Source: an uncultured Bacilli bacterium (lineage in GTDB: Bacteria > Bacillota_I > Bacilli_A > RF39 > UBA660). Taken from it: 36,414 nucleotides of DNA. The notes under the pieces were generated by a model. It saw only the letters and a list, made by a program, of their open reading frames with translations, did not search any database and had not been told where the DNA came from. The stretch lies in contig CANQXQ010000003.1 in assembly GCA_947627845.1 (NCBI GenBank), forward strand, positions 1 to 36,414, given 5' to 3'. Made by a program: the position numbers and the translations under genes. This document shows, piece after piece, positions 628 to 35,813 of the stretch. How positions within the stretch are numbered: position 1 is the stretch's first letter; the number at the start of each line of letters is the position of its first letter.

Positions 628-1683
628 ATGAAGTTATTACCATTTAATGATTATGATTTAAAAACCCCAAAAATACTTGAAGCATTAAATGAAGCTTCCA
701 GATCACTTGCTGAATTAAAAGGCTTTGCTAATTCCATTCCCAATCAACATATTTTAATTAATGCTATTACTATTAATGAAGCCAAGGATAGTAGTGCTAT
801 AGAAAATATTGTGACTACCCATGATAGTATTTATAAAGTATTAACCGAAAGTGGATTTAAAGATGAGTCTGCTAAAGAAGTTGTTGATTATAGAAGTGCT
901 ATTTGGCGCGGGTATGAAGTAATAAAAGAAAAAGGATTTATATCAACTAATATTTTAGTGGAACTTCAAGAAATTATTGAACACAACAAAGCTGGGATAA
1001 GAAAAAATCCTGGTACGAAATTAGTTAATAGTAAAACGCCAGAGGTAATTTATACTCCCCCTCAAGCAGAAAAAGAAATTAGAGATTTATTGAAAAATCT
1101 TGAAGATTATATTAATGAAAAGAATGACGATGTAGATCCATTAATTAAAATGGCTTTAATTCATTATCAATTTGAATCTATCCATCCCTTTTACGATGGA
1201 AATGGTAGAACAGGAAGAATATTAAATGTTTTATATTTAGTATTAAATAATCTTTTGGATAGTCCAATTCTTTATTTAAGTAATTATATTAACAAAAATA
1301 AAGAACAATACTATAAATTATTTACTGAATTTAGAGAAAATAATAACTATGAAGATTGGATTATCTATATATTAAAAGGAATTGAAGAAACATCTAAAAA
1401 AACAATTCAATTAATTAAACAAATTCAAAATGAAATGGAATCTTATAAAGAAGATTTTATGACAAAATTGCCTAAAATATATTCTGATGAATTATTATAC
1501 TCTTTATTCTTTGAAGTTTATACTCGAATTAATTATATTGAAAATAGATGTGGTGTAACAAGACAAACCGCCGCTACATATTTAAATAGTTTAGTAGATG
1601 CAGGATTACTTGAAATCGAAAAAGTAGGAAGAGAAAGTATTTATAAAAATAAAAGATTAATTGATTTATTAAGTAAATTTTAA
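628..1683 (+). CDS. fic: Fic family AMPylase (class II, N-terminal inhibitory helix, C-terminal winged HTH)
   Basis: Canonical HPFYDGNGRTGR motif; SSAIEN matches the (S/T)xxxE(G/N) inhibitory motif; C-terminal GVTRQTAATYLNSLVDAGLL HTH; AAGGAG RBS. Confidence 0.92.
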   Translation: MKLLPFNDYDLKTPKILEALNEASRSLAELKGFANSIPNQHILINAITINEAKDSSAIENIVTTHDSIYKVLTESGFKDESAKEVVDYRSAIWRGYEVIKEKGFISTNILVELQEIIEHNKAGIRKNPGTKLVNSKTPEVIYTPPQAEKEIRDLLKNLEDYINEKNDDVDPLIKMALIHYQFESIHPFYDGNGRTGRILNVLYLVLNNLLDSPILYLSNYINKNKEQYYKLFTEFRENNNYEDWIIYILKGIEETSKKTIQLIKQIQNEMESYKEDFMTKLPKIYSDELLYSLFFEVYTRINYIENRCGVTRQTAATYLNSLVDAGLLEIEKVGRESIYKNKRLIDLLSKF

Positions 1684-2088: not shown

Positions 2089-2117
2089 TTTACATCTTTA
2101 TACCTCCATGATATACT
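2089..2117 (+). promoter_or_regulatory. bsh promoter
   Basis: TTTACA (2089-2094)-17-TATACT (2112-2117) with extended TG. Confidence 0.55.
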
Positions 2118-2146
2118 ATTATTATAAAATGAAAGGAAAATATAAT

Positions 2147-3121
2147 ATGTGTACTGCAATAACTTATAATACTAAAGATCATTACTTTGGAAGGAATTTA
2201 GATTTGGAGTATTCTTATAAAGAAACCGTGACCATAACTCCTCGAAATTATTCTTTTAAATTTCGGAAAGCCAAAGAAATAAAAAATCATTATGCTCTTA
2301 TCGGCATGGCTTATGTTGCTGATAATTACCCTTTATATTATGATGCTATTAATGAAAAAGGTTTAGGGATGGCTGGTTTAAACTTTCCCAAGAATGCTGC
2401 ATATAAAGAATTAGAAAAGAGTAAAGATAATATTGCTCCCTTTGAATTTATTCCTTGGGTTTTATCGCAATGTGCTAATCTTGAAGAAGCCAAAGAATTA
2501 TTAACTACGATTAATATTGCTCAAATTAATTTTAGCGAAGAATTACCGGCATCACCCCTCCATTGGATTATTGCTGATCAAGAAAAATCCCTTACGGTTG
2601 AATGTGTAAAAGAGGGTTTAAAAATATATGATAACCCCGTCGGAGTTTTAACTAATAATCCTCCTTTTGACATGCAAATGTTTAATTTAAATAATTATAT
2701 GAACTTATCAATTGAACCCCCTATAAATAACTTTTCAAAAAATTTAGAATTTGATACTTATAGTCGTGGCTTGGGCGCTTTAGGTTTACCTGGTGATTTG
2801 TCTTCAGCCTCACGCTTTGTTAAAGCAAGCTTTACCAAAATGAATTCTTTATCAGGTTCTTCCGAGAAAGAAAGTATTAGCCAATTTTTCCATATTTTAA
2901 AATCCGTGGAACAACAAAGAGGTTGTGTTCATATGGGCGGTGATAAATACGAAATAACTATTTATAGTTCATGTTGTAATATGGACAAAGGAATATATTA
3001 TTATACAACTTATGATAATAGTCAAATTACAGGTATAGATATGCATAAAGAAAACTTAGATGGTGCTAATTTAATTAATTATGATTTAATTAAAGATGAA
3101 CAAATATTAATGCAAAATTAA
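2147..3121 (+). CDS. bsh: bile salt hydrolase / choloylglycine hydrolase (Ntn hydrolase)
   Basis: Start re-assigned to ATG 2147 (GAAAGGA RBS), giving M-C2-TAITY...GRNLD (Cys2, Arg16, Asp19); also GMAGLNF, LTNNP and SRF motifs. Confidence 0.9.
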   Translation: MCTAITYNTKDHYFGRNLDLEYSYKETVTITPRNYSFKFRKAKEIKNHYALIGMAYVADNYPLYYDAINEKGLGMAGLNFPKNAAYKELEKSKDNIAPFEFIPWVLSQCANLEEAKELLTTINIAQINFSEELPASPLHWIIADQEKSLTVECVKEGLKIYDNPVGVLTNNPPFDMQMFNLNNYMNLSIEPPINNFSKNLEFDTYSRGLGALGLPGDLSSASRFVKASFTKMNSLSGSSEKESISQFFHILKSVEQQRGCVHMGGDKYEITIYSSCCNMDKGIYYYTTYDNSQITGIDMHKENLDGANLINYDLIKDEQILMQN

Positions 3122-4942: not shown

Positions 4943-6913
4943 ATGGAAAAAAATAATAAATTTTTAGGGGAAGAAAAAATAACTAAATTGCTATTTAAAT
5001 TTTCTATTCCCTGTATTTTATCTCTACTAATTAGTTCTTTATATAATATAGTAGATCAAATCTTTATCGGCCATAGTTCTTTAGGCTATTTAGGAAATGC
5101 CGCGACTGGTGTTGTTTACCCCATCACAATTATTGCCGTTGCTTTTGCTTGGTGTTTTGGTGATGGTGCCGCCGCTTATTTATCTTTATGTCAAGGAAGA
5201 GGAGATACTAAAAATGCGCATCAAGCTATAGGTAATAGTTTAATAATAACATTCGTTACCAGTATTTTATTTCTTATTTTAGGCTTCATTTTTAAAGATA
5301 AATTATTATATCTTTTTGGAGCCAGTTCTAAAAGTATTAAGCTTGCTCGCGATTATTATACTATTATATTAAGTGGCATACCAATATATATGTTAGGTAA
5401 TAGTATGAATGGTATTATGCGTGCAGATGGTTCTCCTAAATTTTCTATGCTTGCTACGACGATTGGAGCTATTACCAATATTATTTTAGATCCTATCTTT
5501 ATCTTTGGCTTTAATTGGGGAATTAAAGGAGCCGCGTACGCTACCGTAATTGGACAAATAGCTACTTTAATTATTTCTGTTATTTACTATTTAAAACCCC
5601 AAACTTTTAAATTAATAAAAGCTAGTTTCAAAATTAATTTTTCAATTTTTAAAAATGTTATCAAATTAGGTATTTCTACTTTTATTACTCAAATTAGTAT
5701 AGTCATTATTTCTTTAGTCTGTAATATTATGTTAGCTAAATATGGCGCTCAAAGTAAATATGGGGCTGATATTCCTATTGCTGTTATTGGTATAGCTATG
5801 AAAGTATTTTCTATTGTCATTAATATTATTGTTGGTATTATTTTAGGGGCTCAACCTATCTTTGGTTATAACTATGGAGCTAGAAATATCGCCCGGGTAA
5901 AAGAAACATTTAAAAAAGTAGTTATTGCTTCTTTAATTGTTGGGGTATTTTTTACTGCAATTTTTGAACTATGTCCTCGTTTAATTATTAGTATCTTTGG
6001 TACTAATGATAGTTTATATTTGGAATTTGCCGTATTAACCTTTAGATTATTTTTAATGCTTGTAACCTTTACTTGTTTAATCAAAATGAGTTCTATTTTC
6101 TTTCAAGCTGTAGGTAATCCTGTAAAATCCGCAATTGCTTCTCTTGCTCGTGATATTCTATTCTTTGTGCCATTAGTTCTAATCTTACCTAAATATATAG
6201 GTATCAAAGGGGTTTTATTAGCATCACCCATTGCTGATTTTTTAGGTATTATTGTTACAATTATTTTAATTTATAATTTCTTTGCTAAATTAACTGTTAA
6301 AACTATAGCTCAAGATAATGTCTATTTAAAAAATTCTCATCCCGGAGTTATTGTTACAATTGCTCGTGAGCATGGTTCTCAAGGTAAAGCTATTGGCGAA
6401 CTTGTTGCCCAAAAATTAAACATTCCTTACTATTATAAAGAAATGACTGCCCTAGCTGCTAAAGAAAGTGGCCTAGATAAAGAATTTATTTCTAATCTTA
6501 ATCATAGTCAAGATATAATGCATGATTTATATTTAACAACATCTCCTGTAAAATATGCAATAGAAGCCCAAGAAAAAGTTCTAAAAAAGATTGCCGAAAA
6601 AGGTTCATGTGTTATTGTTGGGCGTGCTGCCGATTATGTTTTAAGAGATAATCCTAATGTTATAAAAATCTTTATATATGCTCCTAAAGAATATCGAATT
6701 AAAAATATTATGGAAATGTATCATGATACTAAAGAAAAAGCCCAAAAAAATATTGAAATATCTGATAAAAATAGAGCAACCTATTATGAATTAATTTCTA
6801 CTCAAAAATGGGCAAATCCTGAAAATTATGATTTATGTATCACCTCAAAATTAGGCAAAGAAAAAACTGCCGAAATAATATGTGATTATCTTAAAAAAAT
6901 AAACCCAATGTGA
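4943..6913 (+). CDS. MATE efflux transporter (MepA-like) fused to a C-terminal cytidylate-kinase-like domain
   Basis: LYNIVDQIFIG, NIILDPIFIF and QPIFGYNYGA MATE motifs; C-terminal VTIAREHGSQG, CVIVGRAADY and YDLCITS motifs of the cytidylate-kinase-like family. Confidence 0.9.
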   Translation: MEKNNKFLGEEKITKLLFKFSIPCILSLLISSLYNIVDQIFIGHSSLGYLGNAATGVVYPITIIAVAFAWCFGDGAAAYLSLCQGRGDTKNAHQAIGNSLIITFVTSILFLILGFIFKDKLLYLFGASSKSIKLARDYYTIILSGIPIYMLGNSMNGIMRADGSPKFSMLATTIGAITNIILDPIFIFGFNWGIKGAAYATVIGQIATLIISVIYYLKPQTFKLIKASFKINFSIFKNVIKLGISTFITQISIVIISLVCNIMLAKYGAQSKYGADIPIAVIGIAMKVFSIVINIIVGIILGAQPIFGYNYGARNIARVKETFKKVVIASLIVGVFFTAIFELCPRLIISIFGTNDSLYLEFAVLTFRLFLMLVTFTCLIKMSSIFFQAVGNPVKSAIASLARDILFFVPLVLILPKYIGIKGVLLASPIADFLGIIVTIILIYNFFAKLTVKTIAQDNVYLKNSHPGVIVTIAREHGSQGKAIGELVAQKLNIPYYYKEMTALAAKESGLDKEFISNLNHSQDIMHDLYLTTSPVKYAIEAQEKVLKKIAEKGSCVIVGRAADYVLRDNPNVIKIFIYAPKEYRIKNIMEMYHDTKEKAQKNIEISDKNRATYYELISTQKWANPENYDLCITSKLGKEKTAEIICDYLKKINPM

Positions 6914-6942: not shown

Positions 6943-7509
6943 ATGAAAAAAAATATTACTACCACTGAAGCAATATTTCCCATGCCTGTATTAATGATTG
7001 CCACTTATAATGATGATGACACCGTTAATGTCATGAATGCAGCTTGGGGAACAATGCTTGAAAGAAATCAAATATTATTAAATTTAAGTGAAACTCATAA
7101 AACAGTTCAAAATATTAAAAAAAGGAAAGCTTTTACTGTAAGCCTTGCTGATAGTAAACATGTAAAAGAAGCTGATTATTTTGGTCTAGTCTCTGGCCAT
7201 AATACTCCCAATAAATTTGTAAGTAGTGGTCTTACTGCGACTAAATCTCTTAATGTTGATGCCCCAGTTATAAATGAATTTCCTATTTGTCTAGAATGTA
7301 CTTATCTAACAAGTGGCAATGATGAATATAATTATGGTGTTATTGGGAAAGTAGTTAATACTCTTGCAGATGAAAGTATTATGACTAATGATAATATTGA
7401 TTTAGCTAAAGCTAATATTATTGCTTTTGATCCTTTTACTCATGGTTATTACGAAGTTAATAAAAGAGTAGGAAATGCCTTTAAAGATGGCTTGGAATTA
7501 AAAAAATAA
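6943..7509 (+). CDS. flavin reductase-like (flavoredoxin-type) FMN-binding protein
   Basis: FPMPVLMIATY, NVMNAAWG, EADYFGLVSG and APVINEFPICLEC motifs. Confidence 0.85.
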   Translation: MKKNITTTEAIFPMPVLMIATYNDDDTVNVMNAAWGTMLERNQILLNLSETHKTVQNIKKRKAFTVSLADSKHVKEADYFGLVSGHNTPNKFVSSGLTATKSLNVDAPVINEFPICLECTYLTSGNDEYNYGVIGKVVNTLADESIMTNDNIDLAKANIIAFDPFTHGYYEVNKRVGNAFKDGLELKK

Positions 7510-7854
7510 ATGACTCGTGAAGAAATATTTACCTATGTTTTAACTAAATATCAAACTATTCCTCAATATAAATGGCCTAAATACCCACTATATGCAGTTT
7601 TAGAACATACTAATAAAAAATGGTATGGGCTAATTATGAATATTGAGAAAAATAAATTAGGCTTAAATGGGGAAGCCCAAATTGATATTTTAAATGTTAA
7701 AGTTCCCCCAGAATTAGTAGGTAGTTTAAGAATGAATAAAGGATTTTTAAAAGCCTATCACATGAATAAAGAACATTGGGTAACAATCATTTTAAATGAA
7801 GTTGATCAAAATAAAATTAAAGAATTAATTGATTTAAGTTATGATTTAACTTAA
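7510..7854 (+). CDS. MmcQ/YjbR family DNA-binding protein
   Basis: KKWYGLIM, ILNVK, AYHMNKEHWVTI and LIDLSYDLT motifs. Confidence 0.9.
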   Translation: MTREEIFTYVLTKYQTIPQYKWPKYPLYAVLEHTNKKWYGLIMNIEKNKLGLNGEAQIDILNVKVPPELVGSLRMNKGFLKAYHMNKEHWVTIILNEVDQNKIKELIDLSYDLT

Positions 7855-24665: not shown

Positions 24666-25274
24666 ATGCAAGATTATCTAATAAATATAATTGGCTTTAT
24701 TGTATCAATATTTATTGCCTTTCTAACGGCTTACTTTACTAGCCGAGGAAATGAGAAAAAAACTACTAATGAATATTTTAAAAAAGAGGGTATTAAAGTT
24801 CAAAAAAGATTATTAGAATTTTGGACCAATCAATTATTTTATGATGTAAGTAAATGCTGTGAAATTTATAAAGAAGAAGCTAATATATCAAAAAAAGTTA
24901 GCAACACTGAAGTTATTAACATAATTATCAAAGAAGCTTCTATCTATTCATCTAAAGAAACAATAAAAGCTTTAGGAAGTTATCAGCAATTTAATTATAA
25001 TATTCATCATAAGAAAAAAGATAATAAATATTATATGGTAAAAACAATTATAACTCCCTTAAGAATTACTAAAAGAATGAAATATGATTTTACGGGAGAA
25101 AAATTAAACATTTTAGATATTTTAAAAGTAAAATTAAATGATTATGATTATAAAATAGCTATATTATTTTATATTATTGAAATAGAATATTTTATTAAAG
25201 AACATTTATTTTTATTTAGTTTAATTATTATATTATTACTTATGAGTACAATTTTAATTCTTTCTATGTTATAA
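24666..25274 (+). CDS. hypothetical membrane protein (N- and C-terminal TM helices)
   Basis: 202-aa ORF with GAGGT RBS, hydrophobic termini and a Lys-rich soluble core; no family recognised. Confidence 0.7.
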   Translation: MQDYLINIIGFIVSIFIAFLTAYFTSRGNEKKTTNEYFKKEGIKVQKRLLEFWTNQLFYDVSKCCEIYKEEANISKKVSNTEVINIIIKEASIYSSKETIKALGSYQQFNYNIHHKKKDNKYYMVKTIITPLRITKRMKYDFTGEKLNILDILKVKLNDYDYKIAILFYIIEIEYFIKEHLFLFSLIIILLLMSTILILSML

Positions 25275-26619: not shown

Positions 26620-27828
26620 ATGAACAAAAAATTTATAATCATTCCAAGTATTATTATTTTAATTTTATTAATTACCCTTATCTCTATAAAAGTGTATAAA
26701 AATTACCAAATAAAACATGCTGTAATTATTGTAGAATTACAAGAGCCATTAGAAACCGAATTTTTAAGTAAAGTTAAAGTTTCTGATTTTATTGTAAATA
26801 TTAATGGTAAAATAGTTGATGATTATACCATTGATACAACCAAAGTTGGTCCTAAAAAAATAAAATTTACTTATATAAATGATGATAATATTAAATTAAA
26901 TCAAGAATATATTCTAAATATTAAAGATACGACTGCGCCCATTGTTTGGTTAAGTGGTTCTTATTCTGTTACGGTAGGAAGTGAAATTAATCTACTTGAT
27001 AAAATTATGTGTGGTGATAACTATGATGCTAATCCTGTTTGTGAAATAATTGGCGATTATGATATGAATACCGCGAATACTTACCCCTTAACTTTTAAAG
27101 CCACTGATTCTAGTGGAAATGTGACCGAAAAGAAATTTAATTTATATGTTCGAAAACCAAGCACTGGGGGAGGCTCATCATCTCCTAGTACTCCTTCTCC
27201 TAAAACTGAATTTAGTGATGTAATAGCCAATTATAAGACCGCTAATACCGAAATAGGTTTAGATATTTCGGAATTTCAAGGAGTCGTAGATTTTAATAAA
27301 TTAAAAGAAGCCGGGGTAGAATTTGTTATTTTACGTGTTGGTAGTACGCATGGTATAAAAGGGGATTATTTTGTTGATGCCAAATTCCATGAAAATATCA
27401 AAAAAGCTAATAAAGCTGGAATGCCAGTTGGAGTTTATTTTTATTCCTATGCTAATAGTAAAGAAAAAGCTATTAAAGATGCTAAATGGATTTTAAATGA
27501 AATTAAAGGTTATAAAGTTGATTTACCTATAGCCTTTGACTGGGAAAACTGGAGTTTTTATAATGAATTTAATTTAAGCTTCTTTGGTTTAACTGATATG
27601 GCTAATGCTTTTTTAGATACTTTTAAAGATGCTGGTTATGATGGAATGCTTTATAGTAGTAAAACTTATCTTGAACAAATATGGCTTGAAACTCCTTACC
27701 CTGTATGGTTAGCGCATTATACTAAACAAACATCTTATAAAGGCGATTATAGTTATTGGCAATTATGCAGTAATGGTCATGTATCAGGCATAAATGGTGA
27801 TGTTGATATAAATATTCGCTATAAATAA
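26620..27828 (+). CDS. membrane-anchored GH25 muramidase with Ig-like stalk domains
   Basis: N-terminal TM; DTTAP and ATDSSGN Ig-like repeats; Ser/Pro/Gly linker; GLDISEFQG, GVYFYSYA, FDWE, WLAHY and WQ...G.V.GI.GDVDIN GH25 motifs. Confidence 0.9.
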   Translation: MNKKFIIIPSIIILILLITLISIKVYKNYQIKHAVIIVELQEPLETEFLSKVKVSDFIVNINGKIVDDYTIDTTKVGPKKIKFTYINDDNIKLNQEYILNIKDTTAPIVWLSGSYSVTVGSEINLLDKIMCGDNYDANPVCEIIGDYDMNTANTYPLTFKATDSSGNVTEKKFNLYVRKPSTGGGSSSPSTPSPKTEFSDVIANYKTANTEIGLDISEFQGVVDFNKLKEAGVEFVILRVGSTHGIKGDYFVDAKFHENIKKANKAGMPVGVYFYSYANSKEKAIKDAKWILNEIKGYKVDLPIAFDWENWSFYNEFNLSFFGLTDMANAFLDTFKDAGYDGMLYSSKTYLEQIWLETPYPVWLAHYTKQTSYKGDYSYWQLCSNGHVSGINGDVDINIRYK

Positions 27829-27853
27829 TTTAAATTAGCATATATTTTAATAG

Positions 27854-28459
27854 GTGATAACTATTAAAAGAGTAGGTATTATTTTAAGAAAGTTTACAGA
27901 AAATAATAAAGAATTTATCGGCTCTCGCTTTGATTTATTTAAAACTTTAAAGAAATATGATGTTAGTGTTTTAGCCATTCCTCAGACTAATTCTTTTTCT
28001 AAAATAAAAGAACTTATTGATCTTTGTGATGGCATTATTTTACCTGGTGGTGATAGTCCTCTTTCTCAAGATTTTTATCTAATTAAGTACTTATATGAAA
28101 AAGATATACCTACTTTAGGTATTTGTTTAGGCATGCAATCAATGGCTAAATATTTTGGTAAACATAAAGAATTATCTATTGAGGGCCACTATAGCTTCCA
28201 AGATTATGTTCATGAAGTTAATATTAAAAAAGATAGTCTGTTATATAAAATAATTCAAAAAGAAACAATATTAGTTAATTCTAGACATCATAGTTATATA
28301 CCCAAGACTAATCTAAAAGTAAATGCAACTTATAATAATATTATAGAGGGAGTAGAGGATCCCACCAAAAAATTCTTTTTAGGCTTAGAGTGGCATCCTG
28401 AAAGTTTAAATGATATAAATAGTAAAAAAATATTTGCTTATTTTTTAAATATTCTTTAG
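27854..28459 (+). CDS. peptidase C26 / gamma-glutamyl-gamma-aminobutyrate hydrolase-like class I glutamine amidotransferase
   Basis: DGIILPGG, LGICLGMQ (Cys), VNSRHH and WHPE (His-x-Glu); start uncertain (GTG 27854 or ATT 27863). Confidence 0.88.
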   Translation: MITIKRVGIILRKFTENNKEFIGSRFDLFKTLKKYDVSVLAIPQTNSFSKIKELIDLCDGIILPGGDSPLSQDFYLIKYLYEKDIPTLGICLGMQSMAKYFGKHKELSIEGHYSFQDYVHEVNIKKDSLLYKIIQKETILVNSRHHSYIPKTNLKVNATYNNIIEGVEDPTKKFFLGLEWHPESLNDINSKKIFAYFLNIL

Positions 28460-28478
28460 CCTATTTAAAGAATATTTA
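28446..28478. terminator. hairpin/terminator between convergent genes
   Basis: TAAATATTCTTTA-N7-TAAAGAATATTTA perfect inverted repeat. Confidence 0.55.
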
Positions 28479-28517
28479 GGATTTTTAAATAAAAGAAAAA
28501 TAAAAAAGTAACTTTCG

Positions 28518-29252
28518 TTACTTATTATCATAAAAGCTTTTGATAGCTACTAAAATTCTCTTAATATTTTCTTCTTTAAAAGGTTTATTTAAAACATCTA
28601 AAATAGGGTAAGTGAAAGCTTTCTTTATAGTTTCTTCGGTATCATCACCAGTAATAATTATAACTGGTACTTTATCAAATAAATCATTTTCTTTCATATA
28701 ATCTAAAACATCAAACCCATTCATCCCAGGCATATTTAAATCAAGTAATATCGCATATATATCTTCTTTAAGATTAGTTATGGCTTCATTTCCATTATTC
28801 GCTCTAATTATGCTATATTCTTCACTAATATTTTTTTCAATAAAATTAAGCATAATATTGGAATCATCCGCGATAATTATTCTTTTTTTATTTTCTCCCT
28901 CAAAATAAGTATTAAGTAAATCTTTAATCTTATTTAAAGTACTTTTTAAATTTTCAAAATTACTAGTAATAAATTCTTGATTTTTTTCTTTACCCGCCAT
29001 TTCATGTTGTAAAAATATTTCGGCATCATTCATAAAACCTAAATATTTAGCTTCACTTTTAGTACTATGAGCCAGAATACCATAATTTTCATAATCATTA
29101 TTATTTTTATAGTATTCTAAATTATTAAGTTTATCAGTTATTGAGTCTCTAAATTCTTTTAAACTATCATTATACGAGTCTAAATCTCCCCAAAACTCCA
29201 TCGCTTCATCTACATGTACCCCATAGTTTTTTAAAATATCAATCTTTTCCAT
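28518..29252 (-). CDS. HPt-receiver fusion protein (no output domain)
   Basis: LAHSTKSEAKYLG HPt motif; ADDS, LLDLNMPGMNG, IITG and KPF receiver motifs; AAGGAGG RBS. Confidence 0.88.
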   Translation of the reverse strand: MEKIDILKNYGVHVDEAMEFWGDLDSYNDSLKEFRDSITDKLNNLEYYKNNNDYENYGILAHSTKSEAKYLGFMNDAEIFLQHEMAGKEKNQEFITSNFENLKSTLNKIKDLLNTYFEGENKKRIIIADDSNIMLNFIEKNISEEYSIIRANNGNEAITNLKEDIYAILLDLNMPGMNGFDVLDYMKENDLFDKVPVIIITGDDTEETIKKAFTYPILDVLNKPFKEENIKRILVAIKSFYDNK

Positions 29253-29264
29253 TCGTAACCTCCT

Positions 29265-31079
29265 TTATTTTAAAAACTTTGTTAACACTTTATTAAGTAA
29301 GTATCTATCAATTGGCTTAGATAAATATTCATCAAATCCGGCACTTTTATATTTTTCGTCTGTTCCCTCAATCGCATCCGCGGTTAAAGCAATCACTGGA
29401 ACATCAAATCCTGGAATTTCTTTTAATTTATTTAAAGCTTCAATTCCATTCATTTTTGGCATCATAATGTCCATTAAGATTAAATCAAAGGTTTGTTTTT
29501 GAGCTTCTTCTAAAGCTTCCATCCCACTTGTAACAGATACTATATCAAACTTATATGGTTTTAAAATATTTTCGGCCACTTTTAAATTAATCTTCGAATC
29601 ATCTACCACTAAAATCTTTTTGCCCTCAAATGCACTATAATCAATTTCTATTTCTTCGGTTTTACTTTCTGGAATTTCCATACTAACAATTTCTTGTTCG
29701 AGATAAATTCTAAAGGTTGAGCCCTCTCCATATTTACTAAAGACATTAACGCGACCACCCATCATTTCAGTTAAGCTTTTAGTAATGGCAAGTCCTAAAC
29801 CTGTACCCTCAATTGTTGTGTTTCGATCTTCATCAATTCTCTCAAATTTATTAAATAATTTATCTATATCTTCTTTTTTAATTCCTCGTCCGGTATCTTT
29901 AACCGAAATATAAAGTAAACTAGTTTTAGTGTCCATTCGATTAATACAATTAATATTAAAGTTTATTTCTCCCTCGTCAGTATATTTAGCGGCATTAGTT
30001 AATAAATTTAATACTATTTGTTTAAGTTTAGCTACATCGCCTTTTAAAACTCCCGGTAAATCCTCTGAATAAGTATATTTAAACTCAATAGGTTTTTCCC
30101 CAATTCTTGGAATTACTAATTTACATAAAGAATTAAATACTTCTCGCGGATTATATTCTTTAGGAATTATTTCCATTTTATTAGCTTCAATTTTTGATAT
30201 ATCAAGTATACCATTAACTATTTCTAATAAGTTATTGGAAGCTTCTACAATATCTTTCGCAAATCCTTTAGTTTCTTCGTTTAAATCATTCCTATCAACT
30301 AAACATTCACTAAATCCCACAATAGCATTAAGTGGAGTTCTAATCTCATGAGACATATTTGATAAGAAATCAGTTTTTGCTTTATTGGCTTTTTCCGCTT
30401 GCTCTTTGGCTAAATTTAATTCTCTAATATGTTTTAAATCAGGGTTTTCAATTGTATGATACATAATAAAGATAATAATAGACTGGAAGAATAGCATTAA
30501 AGTAAGTTTTGGATTAATGTGTTGCACTATAATAAAAACTGTTCCGAGTCCAATATAAACCAAAAGAGGAATGTACTCTTTTTTAATAATTTGTTTAAGA
30601 TTTTTAATTAAGCAATAAAGCATAATTATAATAAAGATAAGCGAACAAATATAATTTATATTAACACTTAAGCCGTAAGTGAAAATACTCGTTTCATCAC
30701 TATATATTTTTATTGGCAAACAAAATATAATTAAGCCTACTAACCATCCAATTATTTTTGAAATTTTAGCTATTTTATTTCCATAGTCTAAATTAAAAGA
30801 TATCAATATAATATAGTAAGTAAATCCTAATCCCCATAGAAAATAAAATACTATATATAATCTTGATATAAATTGATTAATAACATTATCTATTCCTAAA
30901 ATATGAAAAGAAAAATAACCTATAATATCGATTGTTAATCCAATTATTGTCAGAATTAACATTCTCGAAAATATTTTTAATTGTACACTTTTAATATTTT
31001 CCTTTGAACTAAAAACAATAAAAATAATTACTAAAAAGAACAAACTTGCAATTGATAACGCCACACTAAAAGAACCCAT
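29265..31079 (-). CDS. hybrid sensor histidine kinase (about 7-TM sensor, HisKA, HATPase, REC)
   Basis: SHEIRTPLN, NLLTNAAKYT, DTGRGI and GTGLGLAI; C-terminal VVDD, MDIMMP and KPI. Confidence 0.95.
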   Translation of the reverse strand: MGSFSVALSIASLFFLVIIFIVFSSKENIKSVQLKIFSRMLILTIIGLTIDIIGYFSFHILGIDNVINQFISRLYIVFYFLWGLGFTYYIILISFNLDYGNKIAKISKIIGWLVGLIIFCLPIKIYSDETSIFTYGLSVNINYICSLIFIIIMLYCLIKNLKQIIKKEYIPLLVYIGLGTVFIIVQHINPKLTLMLFFQSIIIFIMYHTIENPDLKHIRELNLAKEQAEKANKAKTDFLSNMSHEIRTPLNAIVGFSECLVDRNDLNEETKGFAKDIVEASNNLLEIVNGILDISKIEANKMEIIPKEYNPREVFNSLCKLVIPRIGEKPIEFKYTYSEDLPGVLKGDVAKLKQIVLNLLTNAAKYTDEGEINFNINCINRMDTKTSLLYISVKDTGRGIKKEDIDKLFNKFERIDEDRNTTIEGTGLGLAITKSLTEMMGGRVNVFSKYGEGSTFRIYLEQEIVSMEIPESKTEEIEIDYSAFEGKKILVVDDSKINLKVAENILKPYKFDIVSVTSGMEALEEAQKQTFDLILMDIMMPKMNGIEALNKLKEIPGFDVPVIALTADAIEGTDEKYKSAGFDEYLSKPIDRYLLNKVLTKFLK

Positions 31080-31094
31080 TTTTATCTACCATCC

Positions 31095-32906
31095 TTATCT
31101 ACTCCTTTGTAAACTAACTTCACCATTATTAACATTGGAATAATCAATATTAAATTTTTTAATTATTTCATTTTTAACAACTTTACCACCAATATTTCTT
31201 GGCAAATTATCAGTAAATATCCATTCATAAGGTATTGAAACTTCATCTAAATTATCATAGCATTCATTAATTAAAAACTCTTTTATTTCCTGTTCTTTTC
31301 CCACATACTCCGGTTTTAAAACTATTACTGCGACAGGAACTTCCTGTTCAGTTTTATGAGGAACTCCAAAAACAAATGATTCTTGAACATATTTATAACT
31401 ACTTATAAATTCATTTATTTTATTAGGATGAATATTAAATCCAAATCTCATAAATGTATCGGAAATTCGTTCAGCAAAGAAGAAATGACCTGAATTATCA
31501 CAATAACCTAAATCTTTTGTGTGTAACCAAACTCTACCATCACTATGTTTTATTAAAGCCTGTTTTGTTTCTTCTTCATTATTTAAGTAACCTTTCATTA
31601 AAGTAGGACCTGAAATACAAATTTCTCCAACTGTATTATAAGGTAACTCTTCATCGGTACCTGGTTTAAATATTGCCATATCAGTTAAAGGAAGTGGTGT
31701 TCCAATACTACCAAATTCATATTTACCAATTGGTCCAGTGGCACCTCCCAAACATTCTGTTGAACCATAACCTTGTTTTACATAAATAGCCTTTTCATTA
31801 AGTGTTTTTTCTACATCACTTGGCAATTTAGCTCCACCAGAAATTCCGTTTTTCATTGGCTTTAATGTTCCATTCTTAAATTCTTCACTTCTTGCCATAC
31901 AAATAAAATGAATTGGACCACCTGTAAATTGGGCTGGGTTTGTTTGTACCATCAACTCAGCAATTTTTTCGGTAATCAAATTTGGAATCATAATAACTTG
32001 AGTACCTAAAATAGCTTCATAGTGCATAACAGAAAAGCCATAAGAAATAGATTGAATAAGTATGTCTAAAATTTTATCGCCTTTTTCATAATCAATACCA
32101 GCTAAAAGATGTTGATACGCTTGTGCATTAATACTTTCATTTGTAAATACAGCACCTTTAGGAACTCCAGTTGTACCACTTGTTCCAATTATTGCTGCCA
32201 CTCCATTTTCTTTATAATAAGGATCTCCTAATTTTTCTTTTGCACCTTCTTTTATAAATTCGTTCCAAGTAATAATACTAGAATTATATGGAACAGCTAT
32301 TTTACCAAATGGCGCTTTATCTCCTTTAAGTTTTGCCATCGTATTTACAAAATCTTTTAAATATTTCGAAATCATGCCCGTTCCATCAGTTAAAACTACC
32401 GCATGAATATGGCAATCTTTTAATACTTGAGCATATTTTTCATAAAAACCATTAAACATAACTACTTTATCTATTTCATTTGCTCTTAAAATTTTTTCTA
32501 ATTCTCTAGCCGGCAAACTAGGAAGAATAGGATAACTTGTGCCACCTATATAGTTAAGGCCATATATTGAACATCTAGATTCAGGGACATTAGGTAGAAT
32601 AATTGGTATTATTTCTTCTTTTTTGGTATTTAAAGCTTGAAAACTTTTAGCAATTTTCTTACAACCTTTAATGTATTCATCATAACTGATTTTTAAACCG
32701 CCCTTGTAATTAGCACCTGGTATCCATAATGCTGTATTTTTTCTGTTTTCTCTTGAATATTTTTCTAACATTTGATAAATACTCATATGAATATCTAAAT
32801 GATCTTTATCAAAATCCTTATAAAGATTACTCCAAGGTCTATCTTTACTAGCTAAACCAGTAAGTTCTTTTTTAATTTTTTCTAAATTTTCATTTTCATT
32901 GCCCAT
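31095..32906 (-). CDS. class I adenylate-forming enzyme (long-chain acyl-CoA ligase-like)
   Basis: TSGTTGVPKG P-loop, QGYGSTE, GEICISGPTLMKGY, HTKDLG and LPRNIGGKV motifs; GGGAGGT RBS. Confidence 0.9.
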   Translation of the reverse strand: MGNENENLEKIKKELTGLASKDRPWSNLYKDFDKDHLDIHMSIYQMLEKYSRENRKNTALWIPGANYKGGLKISYDEYIKGCKKIAKSFQALNTKKEEIIPIILPNVPESRCSIYGLNYIGGTSYPILPSLPARELEKILRANEIDKVVMFNGFYEKYAQVLKDCHIHAVVLTDGTGMISKYLKDFVNTMAKLKGDKAPFGKIAVPYNSSIITWNEFIKEGAKEKLGDPYYKENGVAAIIGTSGTTGVPKGAVFTNESINAQAYQHLLAGIDYEKGDKILDILIQSISYGFSVMHYEAILGTQVIMIPNLITEKIAELMVQTNPAQFTGGPIHFICMARSEEFKNGTLKPMKNGISGGAKLPSDVEKTLNEKAIYVKQGYGSTECLGGATGPIGKYEFGSIGTPLPLTDMAIFKPGTDEELPYNTVGEICISGPTLMKGYLNNEEETKQALIKHSDGRVWLHTKDLGYCDNSGHFFFAERISDTFMRFGFNIHPNKINEFISSYKYVQESFVFGVPHKTEQEVPVAVIVLKPEYVGKEQEIKEFLINECYDNLDEVSIPYEWIFTDNLPRNIGGKVVKNEIIKKFNIDYSNVNNGEVSLQRSR

Positions 32907-32930
32907 AAATTAACCTCCCTATTAAACAAT

Positions 32931-32939
32931 ATTGTATCA
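32931..32939 (-). promoter_or_regulatory. extended -10 promoter of the ligase-kinase operon
   Basis: Minus-strand TGATACAAT about 25 nt upstream of the ligase ATG. Confidence 0.5.
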
Positions 32940-33067
32940 TAACTTTAATTAAAATGATATAAATTATTGTTATAAACAATAAATAATTTGAAAAAATAAG
33001 TGAATATTTTCCTTCCAAAAATCTACCCAAACTATATTATATAAATCTTAAAAATGCAACAAATTTA

Positions 33068-33096
33068 TTGCCTCAATGTATCAAATATGATACAAT
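33068..33096 (+). promoter_or_regulatory. promoter with palindromic operator in the spacer
   Basis: TTGCCT-17-TACAAT; TGTATCA-N4-TGATACA at 33077-33094. Confidence 0.75.
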
Positions 33097-33115
33097 TATT
33101 ACGGTGATTTGACGA

Positions 33116-33370
33116 ATGAAATACGATCCTAGTTATGTTGACTACTCCTACGATGGTGAACTTTTAAATGAAATCTTTATAAAAGAATTTATTAGATTTA
33201 GAAAAGAGAATAATTTAACTCAAGATGTCTTTTCTAAATTTTCTAATGTTCCCCGGGAAAAAATTGCCCGGATTGAAAATGGTTCTCATTCTCCGAGTAT
33301 TTTAAGTTTATTAAAAATTCTGGGTCCTATTGGTTATACAATTAAAATTGTTAAAGTAAATAGATACTAA
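33116..33370 (+). CDS. small XRE-family HTH protein (HigA-like antitoxin architecture)
   Basis: RKENNLTQ......VPREKIARIENG.HSPS..SLLKIL...G motif; GGTGA RBS. Confidence 0.8.
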   Translation: MKYDPSYVDYSYDGELLNEIFIKEFIRFRKENNLTQDVFSKFSNVPREKIARIENGSHSPSILSLLKILGPIGYTIKIVKVNRY

Positions 33371-33419
33371 TCATATTCAAAATTAAAAATTTTTGATATA
33401 ATATACTAACGGTGATTAT

Positions 33420-34280
33420 ATGAATAGATATGAAAGTACTAAAAAAGTTAGCTTAATTGGTATGATTAGTAATATTTTTTTACTTATCATTAAATTTATT
33501 GTGGCTACTTTTTCTCATAGTGAAGCTTTACTGGCGGATGCTGTTAATTCGGGAGGCGATATTTTTTCTTCCTTAATGTCTTATATTGGCAATAAAATAG
33601 CGAGCCATCCTAGCGATGAAGATCACAACTTTGGCCATGGTAAAGCCGAGTATATCTTTTCTCTACTTATTGGTATTTCTATGATTTTAGTCGCATCTAA
33701 AGTTTTTTATGATTCTTTAAAATCTATTTTTAATCATAACCAATTTATTTTCTCTATCTATTTAGTTATAGTTTGTATTATTACAATTTTAACTAAATTA
33801 GCTCTCTATTTATATTGTAAAACTAATTATCATAAACACTATAATATTTTACTTAAAGCCACTATGAACGATAATCGTAATGATGCAATTTTAAGTTTTG
33901 GTACATTAGTTTCAGTTATTCTAGGCTTCTTTGGCTACTATTATTTTGATGGTATTATAGGTTCTTTAATTTCTATTTATATTATTTTTACTGGTATTTC
34001 TATCTTTTTAGAAAGTTATAAAATTTTAATGGATGTTTCCCTAGATAAAGAATACACGGATAATATTATTAAATATATTTTAAAAAATAAAGAAATAAAA
34101 AAAGTCACGGATTTTAATACTATTGCGACCGGCTATAAATATATTGCCATCTTAACTATTAATGTTGATGGTAATTTAACTACTTTTAAATCCCATGAAC
34201 TTGCCGATAACTTAGAAAAAGAAATTCCTAATGAATTTCGCAAAATTTATAAAGTAATAATTCATGTAAATCCCATTTAA
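33420..34280 (+). CDS. cation diffusion facilitator (FieF/MntE-like)
   Basis: SEALLADAVNSGGD, D.DHNFGHGKAEY, DNRND and IHVNP motifs. Confidence 0.92.
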   Translation: MNRYESTKKVSLIGMISNIFLLIIKFIVATFSHSEALLADAVNSGGDIFSSLMSYIGNKIASHPSDEDHNFGHGKAEYIFSLLIGISMILVASKVFYDSLKSIFNHNQFIFSIYLVIVCIITILTKLALYLYCKTNYHKHYNILLKATMNDNRNDAILSFGTLVSVILGFFGYYYFDGIIGSLISIYIIFTGISIFLESYKILMDVSLDKEYTDNIIKYILKNKEIKKVTDFNTIATGYKYIAILTINVDGNLTTFKSHELADNLEKEIPNEFRKIYKVIIHVNPI

Positions 34281-34319
34281 TAATTTTTAAAACTTTGTTA
34301 TAATTAATTTGGTGATAAT

Positions 34320-35813
34320 ATGACCAAAAATAAACTTAATAATATTTTAAGTAATATTATTATAATTATTATAATTTTAATTGGCGCATCCATGTTAATT
34401 ATGCGATTTACGCAAAATGATATTTTTTTTGATCTTAAAACTGGTCAAAATCTTTTTAAATATGGCTTAGATTTTAAAGATCATTTTTCTTTTATACCCA
34501 ATTTAACTTATCTATATCATCATTATTTATATGATATATTAATCTCTCAAATATATTCTTATACAAACTTTTATGGTATATTTATTTTTTTCTTACTTAT
34601 CTATTCTTTATTAGGCCTTATTGTTTATAAAATAACTAATAATTATTCTCAAAATAAATTAATATCTTTATTTATATCTTTAATTACTATGTATTTATTA
34701 AAATCATATTATAGTGATCGGGTTCAAGCAGTTACTTATATCCTATTTTTTTTAGAAATTTATTATCTAATTAAATTATATAATACTGGTAATAAAAAAT
34801 ATTCTTTTATCTTAATCTTATTATCTATTTTAATTGTTAATTTACATATGCCTTTATGGATTTTTACTTTAGTTTTATGTTTACCATTTTTAGCTGAAAT
34901 AGTTTTAATCCCTTTAATTAATAAAATAAAATTTCTAAAAAATCATCTCTCCAATAAAATTATTTTTACTAAACCCCAAAATTCTAAAATATTTATTCTA
35001 ACTTTTATTTTATTATTATTAAGTGGTTTATGCTCACCTTTTAAATTAAATCCTTATACTTTTTTTATTAAAGCTTTTAATAATAGTTCTTATAGCTTTA
35101 TTATGGAAATGCAACCAACCATTTTAATTCATGAACCTAAACTTTTAATTATCTTGGGTCTAACAATTATTTTATTTATGTTTAAAACTAAAATAAAATT
35201 CTCTGATTTAGCTCTACTTTTAGGTTTATTTGTTTTTTCTTTAATCGCGCATCGTAATATTGCTTATGTTTATCTTTTTTACCCCTTGATATTAATTAAA
35301 ATCTTTTTCGAAAATTATTCTTTACCTAAATTTCCTGAAATAAAAAATATTACTAAATATCTAAACATTAATGTTCTTTATTTCATAACAGCCATTTGTT
35401 TACTAATCTGTTATATCTTATCTTTTAGTCTTTTAAAAGATTTTGACTATAAAGTTAAAGATACTTACCCTGATGAAATAGTAAACTATATTAAAAATAA
35501 TTTAGATTATTCTCATTTAAAATTCTATTGTGACTTTAATTATGGCTCTTATCTAGCTTTATATGATATTCCCATTTTTATTGACTCTCGAGCCGAAGTT
35601 TATATTAAAGAATTTAATGGGGGAGAGGACATAATAAAAGATTATTTAATTTCAACTGGTATGAACTATAAAGAAATATTTGAAAAATATCAATTTGATT
35701 ATGCCATAGTCTATTATAATAATGATTTATACCATTATTTAGAACAAGATGCAGATTTCGAATTAATTTATAATGAAGATAATATGTATGCCTTATTTGA
35801 ATGCAATCTATAA
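34320..35813 (+). CDS. polytopic membrane protein, GT-C-fold glycosyltransferase-like
   Basis: ND after TM1 (QNDIFFDLKTG), R.Q, VNLH, NPY..F and FNYGSYL..FIDSRAEVY; more than 10 TMs. Confidence 0.55.
   Translation: MTKNKLNNILSNIIIIIIILIGASMLIMRFTQNDIFFDLKTGQNLFKYGLDFKDHFSFIPNLTYLYHHYLYDILISQIYSYTNFYGIFIFFLLIYSLLGLIVYKITNNYSQNKLISLFISLITMYLLKSYYSDRVQAVTYILFFLEIYYLIKLYNTGNKKYSFILILLSILIVNLHMPLWIFTLVLCLPFLAEIVLIPLINKIKFLKNHLSNKIIFTKPQNSKIFILTFILLLLSGLCSPFKLNPYTFFIKAFNNSSYSFIMEMQPTILIHEPKLLIILGLTIILFMFKTKIKFSDLALLLGLFVFSLIAHRNIAYVYLFYPLILIKIFFENYSLPKFPEIKNITKYLNINVLYFITAICLLICYILSFSLLKDFDYKVKDTYPDEIVNYIKNNLDYSHLKFYCDFNYGSYLALYDIPIFIDSRAEVYIKEFNGGEDIIKDYLISTGMNYKEIFEKYQFDYAIVYYNNDLYHYLEQDADFELIYNEDNMYALFECNL

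Follow-up and report, generated by a model that had tools for sequence, protein, structure and literature searches.

The stretch of DNA analysed here, called the window throughout (36,414 nucleotides; contig CANQXQ010000003.1 of GenBank assembly GCA_947627845.1, from an uncultured Bacilli bacterium of the RF39 lineage), carries on its minus strand three closely spaced genes that encode an adenylate-forming enzyme of the ANL superfamily, a hybrid histidine kinase with a seven-transmembrane (7TM) sensor domain, and a protein that fuses a histidine phosphotransfer (HPt) domain to a receiver (REC). We find that enzyme, kinase and HPt-REC genes recur in this order in related genomes, and comparison of the loci indicates that the ligase-like enzyme and the 7TM domain form a single hypervariable cassette on a conserved transmitter backbone. 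The reading that we favour, at a probability of roughly 0.55, is that enzyme and receptor recognise one shared, membrane-partitioning acyl compound, with the receptor signalling through the relay and the enzyme consuming or producing the species that is read.

Within its assembly (here G000; 983 kb in 88 contigs, 92% complete, ~25% G+C), the window makes up contig C3. Genes given below as not found in G000 or in other genomes of its genus were not found in incomplete assemblies. The genes of relatives are longest open reading frame (ORF) calls, and for the bulk tallies, purpose-built hidden Markov models (HMMs), with Pfam spot-checks, supplied the labels HPt, receiver, ligase and acyltransferase. 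The main features, in coordinates of the window, are as follows.

31095..32906, minus strand: ANL adenylate-forming enzyme gene (the ligase), 603 aa, P-loop K250 and A10 K575 (Pfam, motifs)
29265..31079, minus strand: hybrid kinase gene, whole (ORF map)
30438..31079, minus strand: 7TM sensor domain of the kinase, aa 1-214, ending in the invariant TIENPD (AlphaFold2 (AF2) model)
29265..30437, minus strand: transmitter backbone of the kinase (Pfam)
30183-30380, minus strand: HisKA of the kinase (Pfam; H244 codon 30348-30350)
29694-30041, minus strand: HATPase_c of the kinase (Pfam)
29289-29615, minus strand: receiver of the kinase (Pfam; D537 codon 29469-29471)
28518..29252, minus strand: HPt-REC gene, 244 aa, with HPt at aa 1-119 and receiver at aa 125-233
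29067-29069 (H62 codon) and 28740-28742 (D171 codon), minus strand: relay residues of HPt-REC
30483..33007, minus strand: hypervariable input cassette, from ~100 nt 5' of the ligase gene through that gene and the spacer to the 7TM-coding part of the kinase gene (blastn, protein identity)

Conserved gene order and an exchangeable cassette

With the window ligase as query, 17 of 61 genomes (G000 and 60 relatives, 36 of the same genus) gave a match at E ≤ 1e-20; five of the same-genus matches are 67-71% identical, and kinase and then HPt-REC follow in all of these five. A profile of the 7TM domain matched at least 453 places in a collection of species-representative genomes, which gives a between-species view of cassette types. 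The best 80 of these loci, which we take to belong to the GTDB order RF39, come nearly all from uncultured gut Bacilli or 'Tenericutes' metagenome-assembled genomes (MAGs), Clostridium sp. CAG:628/710/302/524 and Candidatus Scybalousia. They hold 86 sensor-kinase ORFs, and by HMM scoring a ligase lies directly upstream on the same strand of 67 and within two genes upstream of 72. The order ligase, acyltransferase, kinase occurs in 4 of the 86 and a ligase one small gene away in 1; an acyltransferase of the PF01553 type stands upstream without a ligase in 2, 3 kinases sit in tandem behind another sensor kinase, and 3 have too little upstream DNA to score. Other neighbours vary between loci, and the largest recurring neighbour cluster is the acyltransferase itself.

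The order is strictest within the genus of the window. The sensor is present in 41 of its 44 genomes, and all 36 hybrid-kinase loci (34 genomes; counting only matches in open frames of at least 590 aa, with fragments, truncated frames and the short contig of G011 set aside) are ordered enzyme, kinase, HPt-REC. The enzyme slot holds a ligase in 31 and a PF01553 acyltransferase in 5, all five verified by Pfam. A second class of locus has an acyltransferase directly upstream of a non-hybrid 7TM kinase of 460-472 aa, followed by a stand-alone receiver, in 9 of 9 loci, with the G011 copy as its Pfam-verified member. When 399 genomes sampled across the class were scored, the family of the window alone gave strong sensor matches, 38 of its 49 genomes having 1-6 copies each; other families gave weak matches alone, in 14 genomes. 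The same profile matched 3792 entries of a 1.84-billion-protein representative library (representatives at 50% identity) at E ≤ 1e-3, 1882 at E ≤ 1e-10 and 618 at E ≤ 1e-30, and among the 150 best matches listed the match begins within the first 15 residues in 149 and at residue 218 in the other.

An earlier note on this DNA, made from its sequence, had proposed that the ligase is tied functionally to the multi-TM hybrid kinase in one module with HPt-REC, and had made this depend on the two genes being adjacent in relatives. The adjacency is kept in the counts above, and the proposal is strongly supported by this conservation of order together with the co-variation of ligase and sensor.

That co-variation can be read at a single locus shared by the window and the genus genome G013. 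The flanking proteins are 73% (HTH_3), 66% (CDF), 54% (GATase) and 71% (GH25) identical, HPt-REC is 65% identical and kinase residues 211-600 are 63-93% identical, whereas kinase residues 1-210 stand at 27-40% and the ligase at 32%. At the DNA level (blastn against the G013 locus, L025), similarity of ~73% is continuous over 26755-30482 and 33008-34281, and between 30482 and 33008 it is gone save for a 138-nt patch in the ligase core. The right-hand boundary is repeated in L069 and L092, at 30464 and 30485, and the breakpoint falls on the invariant TIENPD that closes TM7. Pairs of loci unrelated to this one repeat the picture. The kinase cores of L058 and L090 are 98% identical, with sensors at 35% and ligases at 42%, and their DNA similarity of 85-89% is lost exactly from ligase nucleotide ~155 to kinase codon ~205. 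Likewise, L039 and L059 compare at 88% (core), 39% (sensor) and 21% (ligase), and L074 and L083 each compare with L102 at 82-83%, 32-33% and 24-25%. The reverse pattern is found between L069 and L095, where ligases (56%) and sensors (~57%) agree and the cores are very different.

Over 55 non-redundant pairs, the Mantel correlation of ligase with sensor is 0.71, against 0.26 for ligase with core and 0.23 for sensor with core, each value being reached by 0 of 999 permutations; among the 1485 comparisons, 36 are high for both ligase and sensor and 1420 low for both. Single linkage at 55% identity resolves the 36 genus loci into 11 sensor types. Loci of the same type have median identities of 64% (sensor), 65% (ligase; minimum 44%), 76% (core) and 64% (HPt-REC); loci of different type have 30%, 22% (maximum 47%), 74% and 64%, respectively. 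Sensors of type 4 have an acyltransferase in the enzyme slot in all five members.

The cassette types are scattered almost at random over the backbone tree. On a maximum-likelihood tree of core, receiver and HPt-REC, the sensor type changes 23 times, for a minimum possible of 10 and a mean of 25.3 (range 22-28) after shuffling. The window backbone is sister to two type-5 loci (SH-like approximate likelihood-ratio test (SH-aLRT) support 99), yet bears a type-2 cassette; the cassette of G013 is of type 7. Taken together, these patterns indicate that ligase and 7TM domain are exchanged as one unit.

The pairing also outlasts the kinase. Although 41 of the 55 ligase-linked kinases are fully intact, 14 are pseudokinases that have lost the phospho-acceptor His (Gln in 12, else Asn or Ala) and the G2 box (L046, L050, L051, L052, L054, L066, L080, L085, L087, L093, L095, L096 and two copies in L097). 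Most retain the N and G1 boxes, several retain the receiver sites, and the ligases linked to them keep intact catalytic motifs. A recognisable HPt, fused or within two genes, accompanies 32 of 38 His-intact kinases and none of the 11 pseudokinases that have downstream DNA. Because the pseudokinases retain the ligase-7TM pair, we conclude that selection acts on the pair itself.

Copy number and layout vary further. Tandem arrangements are seen as ligase-kinase-ligase-kinase (L097), ligase-kinase-kinase-kinase (L033) and ligase-ligase-kinase (L064 and L070), and G288 and G274, with genomes of ~1.2-1.4 Mb, have six sensor copies each, a large investment for reduced genomes. Three loci (L115, L119 and L126) end shortly after the 7TM match, close to where 7TM and kinase join. 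Frames of 227-310 aa that looked like stand-alone, kinase-less 7TM proteins were dropped as candidates, since these three fit truncation at a contig end. Such ends fit assemblies that break on the conserved, multi-copy kinase core, so copy numbers in MAGs are probably underestimates. An ORF of 314-317 aa follows HPt-REC at L018:4646-5590 and also in L020, L021, L022, L144, L150, L152, L153, L156 and L157, overlapping HPt-REC by 4 nt where checked (L018-L022). Pfam identifies the L018 copy as an adenosine deaminase; we rejected this gene as part of the module and regard it as a neighbour, since the window and most genus loci lack it.

Proteins and layout of the operon

The window enzyme is the sole AMP-binding gene found in G000. 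It matches AMP-binding (PF00501; 1.2e-50, 172.8 bits) and AMP-binding_C (PF13193; 9.1e-11, 43 bits) above cut-off, and it has the hallmarks of the ANL superfamily in TSGTTGVPKG, GYGSTE, R480 and K575; the closest solved structures are FadD13, 4-coumarate-CoA ligases and luciferases. The median ligase identity is 27%, yet across 56 ligases of the family the catalytic motifs are retained: P-loop Thr and Lys in 56/56, A5 Glu in 56/56, A7 Asp in 50/56, A8 Arg in 55/56 and A10 Lys in 55/56. Family ligases are thus of the active type and predicted to be catalytically competent. The name 'acyl-coenzyme A (CoA) ligase', which the earlier note had used in the form 'acyl-CoA-ligase-like', goes further than these data. 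The top NCBIfam models are indeed fatty-acyl-CoA ligases, and all 25 listed models score below their curated cut-offs, the best FadD-type model, NF004837, at 244.2 bits against a cut-off of 476, and the Aas model NF006386 at 119 bits. The label is therefore unproven, because the FadD models are sub-threshold and because, of the 13 genus genomes sampled, G000 and most others yielded no CoaE, acyl carrier protein (ACP) or Pta. A predicted ligase-7TM complex scored 0.00 in both runs, with no control pairs folded, and is neutral on binding.

The kinase matches HisKA, HATPase_c and Response_reg above cut-off, and H244, N362, D395/G397/G399, G425/G427/G429, D493, D494, D537, T566 and K588 are all in place. 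By its domains, its H, N, G1 and G2 boxes and the DD-D-T-K signature of its receiver, it qualifies as a hybrid histidine kinase of the intact class. In a confident AF2 model made from an alignment of 55 sequences, residues 1-231 show seven transmembrane helices (pLDDT 86.2, pTM 0.83), a β-hairpin on the outer face between TM4 and TM5, short basic inner loops and a cytoplasmic helix that runs into the DHp domain. The sensor residues Y89, P122, G136, P171, M206, Y207 and T209-D214 are invariant in all 55 sequences. No match to the PDB was returned for the 7TM model by Foldseek at E ≤ 1e-3, and VIA-align placed it at Z 14-16 to many G-protein-coupled receptors (GPCRs) and other 7TM proteins; such scores are also typical of unrelated helical bundles, and we therefore claim no specific fold family. 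The sensor is best described, from the model, as a GPCR-like all-membrane 7TM bundle, and nothing narrower. No Pfam family, including 7TMR-DISM (PF07695) and HisKA_7TM (PF16927), matches the 7TM region of the window copy; PF07695 matches 4 of 55 homologues weakly (best 0.0043), and an Atlas feature search with the sensor returned only unnamed Bacillota clusters and distant HisKA_7TM leads at 0.86-0.87.

Within HPt-REC, the receiver is recognised by Pfam (REC, 1.4e-20; sites D129, D130, D171, T201 and K223) and lies nearest in the PDB to single-domain regulators of the CheY and Spo0F types. The Pfam Hpt family (PF01627) does not match the window copy at E ≤ 0.01; it matches 25 of 33 aligned homologues (best 8.9e-08), and H62, K65, S66 and G72 are invariant in all 33. 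The phosphorelay had been called complete in the earlier note. All four His-Asp-His-Asp sites (H244, D537, H62 and D171) are present, and Pfam finds no output domain on the final receiver, so that completeness extends to the relay sites and not to an output.

As for layout, the ORF map, the sequence and folding agree with three minus-strand genes separated by 15 and 12 nt with no hairpin between them, and Pfam, AF2 and the homologue alignment agree with the products first assigned to them, namely an adenylate-forming enzyme, a roughly 7-TM hybrid kinase and HPt-REC. The non-coding and flanking features are as follows, folding being given as minimum free energy (MFE).

31080..31094, minus strand: ligase-kinase spacer, 15 nt, purine-rich (AGGATGG) before ATG, unstructured (sequence; MFE 0 kcal/mol)
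29253-29264, minus strand: kinase-to-HPt-REC spacer, 12 nt, unstructured (sequence; MFE 0 kcal/mol)
28490..28529, minus strand: terminator-like hairpin and U-run that overlaps and trails the HPt-REC stop codon (-7.9 kcal/mol, z -2.76)
32907..33115, unstranded: divergent intergenic region between the ligase and HTH_3 genes, presumed promoter region (ORF map)
33116..33370, plus strand: small divergent XRE/HTH_3 protein, 84 aa, conserved neighbour (Pfam HTH_3 6.2e-08)

All three operon genes are preceded by a purine-rich ribosome-binding stretch, as read from the sequence, and across 55 related pairs the ligase-to-kinase gap has a median of 54 nt (range -50 to 138). A consensus scan found no minus-strand terminator-like site within the three-gene block, and overlooked the terminal hairpin because its stem has too few G-C pairs. 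Promoter-like matches are no commoner in this AT-rich DNA than in shuffled sequence (32 found, 34.6 expected), and the scan is therefore uninformative on an internal promoter. A search of sequencing runs gave no matching RNA run, only animal-gut metagenome DNA runs with a word share of at most 0.45. The best reading of the layout is one predicted operon of two modules.

G013 has the HTH_3 neighbour in the corresponding position, with 73-74% identity, and an opposite-strand ORF of 84-96 aa, judged by size alone, occupies that position in 17 of the 36 genus loci; it is possible that the protein acts as a local regulator. Elsewhere in the window, a choloylglycine (bile salt) hydrolase family gene (2108-3121, plus strand; CBAH, 4.6e-107) and a Fic/SoFic-like gene (628-1683, plus strand) fit a gut organism, and a 656-aa protein (4943-6913, plus strand) has the unusual architecture of a MatE efflux domain fused to a C-terminal Cytidylate_kin2 domain. 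Two ORFs, of 497 aa (34320-35813, plus strand) and 202 aa (24666-25274, plus strand), have no Pfam match at E ≤ 0.001.

Readings of the pairing

On the reading that we favour, the first module would be the exchangeable input cassette of ANL enzyme and 7TM receptor domain, and its ligand a compound of acyl or carboxylate kind, with a fatty-acid-like lipid as the likeliest case. The receptor would bind this ligand inside the bilayer, and the enzyme, at the inner leaflet, would either consume it or make the product that the receptor reads, so that the signal is set or reset. The second module, the conserved transmitter backbone, would then pass phosphate from H244 to D537, on to H62 of the HPt domain, and from there to the fused receiver at D171 and/or to another receiver. 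The link to lipids is suggested by the alternation of acyltransferase with ligase, by the fatty-acyl-CoA ligases that are the nearest models of the window enzyme, and by a sensor that is predicted to lie wholly in the membrane.

Besides the module, the regulators of G000 comprise an orphan Spo0A, two pairs of the OmpR type, a LytTR pair of agr/com-like character and, at the edge of a contig, a partial receiver. The agr/com-like pair (C22:5020-7051, L108) consists of a LytTR response regulator and a 424-aa HATPase_c_5 kinase, with an unassigned 177-aa ORF upstream (7084-7617). Spo0A (REC and Spo0A_C, 262 aa; C22:12475-13263, L108) lies beside pgk and tpi and is the sole orphan DNA-binding regulator found in G000; it might conceivably receive the relay. 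Retention of spo0A and a prediction of sporulation have already been published for RF39 (PMC10868615).

Several observations weigh against the reading as a whole or in part. CoaE was found in 1 of 13 genus genomes (G000 included), PP-binding in 2, marginally, and Pta in none, which leaves no clear acceptor for an acyl-adenylate; CoA salvage is a possible source. The operon contains neither an output domain nor a DNA-binding partner. Spo0A (Spo0A_C) is present in 44/44 genus and 47/49 family genomes, including 10 of the 11 family genomes that lack the sensor; being near-universal with or without the sensor, its co-occurrence gives no support for a relay-Spo0A link. Among the 86 sensor kinases, 6 have neither enzyme upstream, and the coupling of ligase and sensor is imperfect, with sensors of at least 50% identity paired with ligases below 50% in 23 of 1485 comparisons and the reverse in 6. 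Part of the co-variation could be linkage, because recombination that finds no conserved DNA between the two cuts at the flanks only. Finally, frequent swapping of alleles at one locus suits social (pherotype) selection better than nutrient sensing.

This last point belongs to the strongest of the rival explanations, which we nevertheless consider improbable. On it, the enzyme, as an acyl-adenylate or amide/ester-forming ANL synthase or an acyltransferase, would make a self-produced lipid-like signal for its cognate 7TM kinase, and the cassette types would be specificity groups of the agr/com kind. The occurrence of 11 types on one backbone within one genus, near-randomly placed on the tree, would follow, as would the swapping of alleles at a syntenic locus between related species; hypervariable enzyme and receptor on a conserved transmitter repeat the layout of agr. 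That CoaE and ACP were not found would permit a product other than a thioester, and the rpf-1 and rpf-2 cluster variants differ in their RpfC input domains (according to part of PMC4517397). The module, however, conserves no exporter, precursor gene or second biosynthetic enzyme, and a lone ligase acting on a common acid would give little specificity unless it joined that acid to a second substrate. Up to six modules in some genomes also sit poorly with pherotypes, as do pseudokinase versions, which would be unable to signal alone.

The pseudokinases are easier to place if the locus is at heart a machine for lipid capture, an explanation that we rank next and also think unlikely. The 7TM domain would act chiefly as a conduit in the membrane, or as a docking site, from which its cognate enzyme receives a lipid or fatty acid, whether for vectorial acylation or for re-acylation of lysolipids in the manner of LplT-Aas, and the kinase would be a secondary reporter of flux that is prone to decay. 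The loss of His and G2 box in 14 of 55 sensors beside intact ligases, and the absence of HPt from the pseudokinases, agree with this. So does the gene content of G000, where ketoacyl synthase/FabF, ACP/PP-binding, DegV (FakB), PlsY, PF01553 (PlsC-type), CoaE and PTA_PTB were not found; these absences suggest a lipid-scavenging lifestyle. Ligase and PF01553 acyltransferase together resemble a split Aas, the sub-threshold score of NF006386 being in keeping. Against it, structure matches are to generic 7TM bundles and identify no transporter fold, the cytoplasmic loops are short in the AF2 model, and signalling is clearly selected, with 41 of 55 kinases intact and HPt-REC kept at every genus locus.

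Bolder than either of these explanations, and more doubtful, is the proposal that the loci represent a new, lipid-based class of kin or pherotype signalling among uncultured gut Bacilli with reduced genomes. The enzyme of each cassette, ligase or acyltransferase, would make a cassette-specific acylated molecule read only by the co-inherited 7TM kinase, and the backbone, from kinase and its receiver to HPt, would feed the orphan Spo0A, such that related strains would choose sporulation or some other developmental outcome according to their specificity group. Weakest is the explanation that the two are neighbours without a shared ligand, the enzyme gene being operon cargo that varies jointly with the sensor through physical linkage alone: any recombination tract does replace adjacent DNA jointly, and recombination resolves solely in conserved DNA, here the kinase core and the upstream flank, but the pairing spans the whole family where the surrounding genes are otherwise unrelated, the slot is shared by two unrelated families of acyl-handling enzymes, each bound to its own sensor type, ligase identity follows sensor type rather than backbone, and the ligase-7TM pair is retained in pseudokinases.

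A shared acyl ligand read by receptor and enzyme is therefore the explanation to which we return. The input domains of two-component systems are mostly orphans for ligand, and this receptor family bears a built-in clue in a co-inherited, catalytically intact acyl-handling enzyme. Since the substrate of an enzyme can be assayed, ligand discovery would be directly testable across the 1882 representatives of the family. The cassette/backbone design, with its 11 types and breakpoints at TIENPD, would also amount to a natural experiment in rewiring an input without altering phosphotransfer specificity. The hosts are abundant uncultured gut Bacilli with genomes of ~1 Mb, several with up to six modules and the window genome with one. 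As no canonical genes for fatty-acid or phospholipid synthesis were found in G000, the system probably bears on how such organisms read or scavenge host and dietary lipids.

Relation to known systems

A literature search for a module of ligase, 7TM kinase and HPt-REC returned nothing relevant, with most subscription journals and supplements outside its coverage, and the pairing of enzyme and 7TM domain, recurrent across the host family, seems to be undescribed. Several known systems nevertheless share parts of its design. In Escherichia coli, LplT and Aas, a membrane protein and an acyltransferase with ANL acyl-activating activity, re-acylate lysophospholipid, and the gene strings of ligase, acyltransferase and 7TM kinase in 4 of our loci resemble this set; LplT, however, is a transporter of the major facilitator superfamily and not a 7TM kinase, and Aas uses ACP, which was not found in G000. 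In Staphylococcus aureus, activation of free fatty acids by FakA/FakB sets a pool that is read by the membrane-embedded kinase SaeS (PMC5539427). The module echoes this arrangement; the Fak genes, however, are unlinked to saeRS, the enzyme family differs, DegV was not found in G000, and SaeS has two transmembrane helices rather than seven.

The agr and com loci of Gram-positive cocci resemble the module in architecture only. The hypervariable segment of agr spans the signal-making gene or genes together with the sensor domain of the kinase, and there, as here, a hypervariable block of producer and sensor is joined to a conserved kinase core and exists in several allelic types. Unlike agr, the operon has no peptide precursor, AgrB-type protease or LytTR regulator; its enzyme partner is acyl-handling, and its kinase is a HisKA-type hybrid with HPt and not of the HPK10 type. 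Allelic hypervariable regions of agr are mentioned in PMC6834553.

A functional parallel is the Rpf system for diffusible signal factor (DSF) of Xanthomonas and Stenotrophomonas, in which a ligase is found with a multi-TM hybrid kinase that has an HPt domain (parts of PMC9040794, PMC4504480 and PMC10226988) and the ligase, RpfB, turns over the fatty-acid signal (parts of PMC9040794 and PMC10226988). Pfam assigned no RpfF-type crotonase or HD-GYP (RpfG) family to any of the window's 30 other ORFs, and none appeared in the neighbour clusters around related loci; because RpfF and RpfG are absent we do not count the locus as a member of Rpf/DSF. The analogy drawn in the earlier note, which had itself remarked that the window contains no RpfF-like synthase, is hence fair as a statement of how the system may work and does not extend to membership. 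What the two share is a fatty-acid-type ANL ligase clustered with a multi-TM hybrid kinase that draws on REC and HPt functions; what sets the present loci apart is a different, unassigned 7TM family, an HPt domain carried on a separate HPt-REC protein, a reduced-genome gut Bacillota host, and an enzyme slot in which an acyltransferase can replace the ligase.

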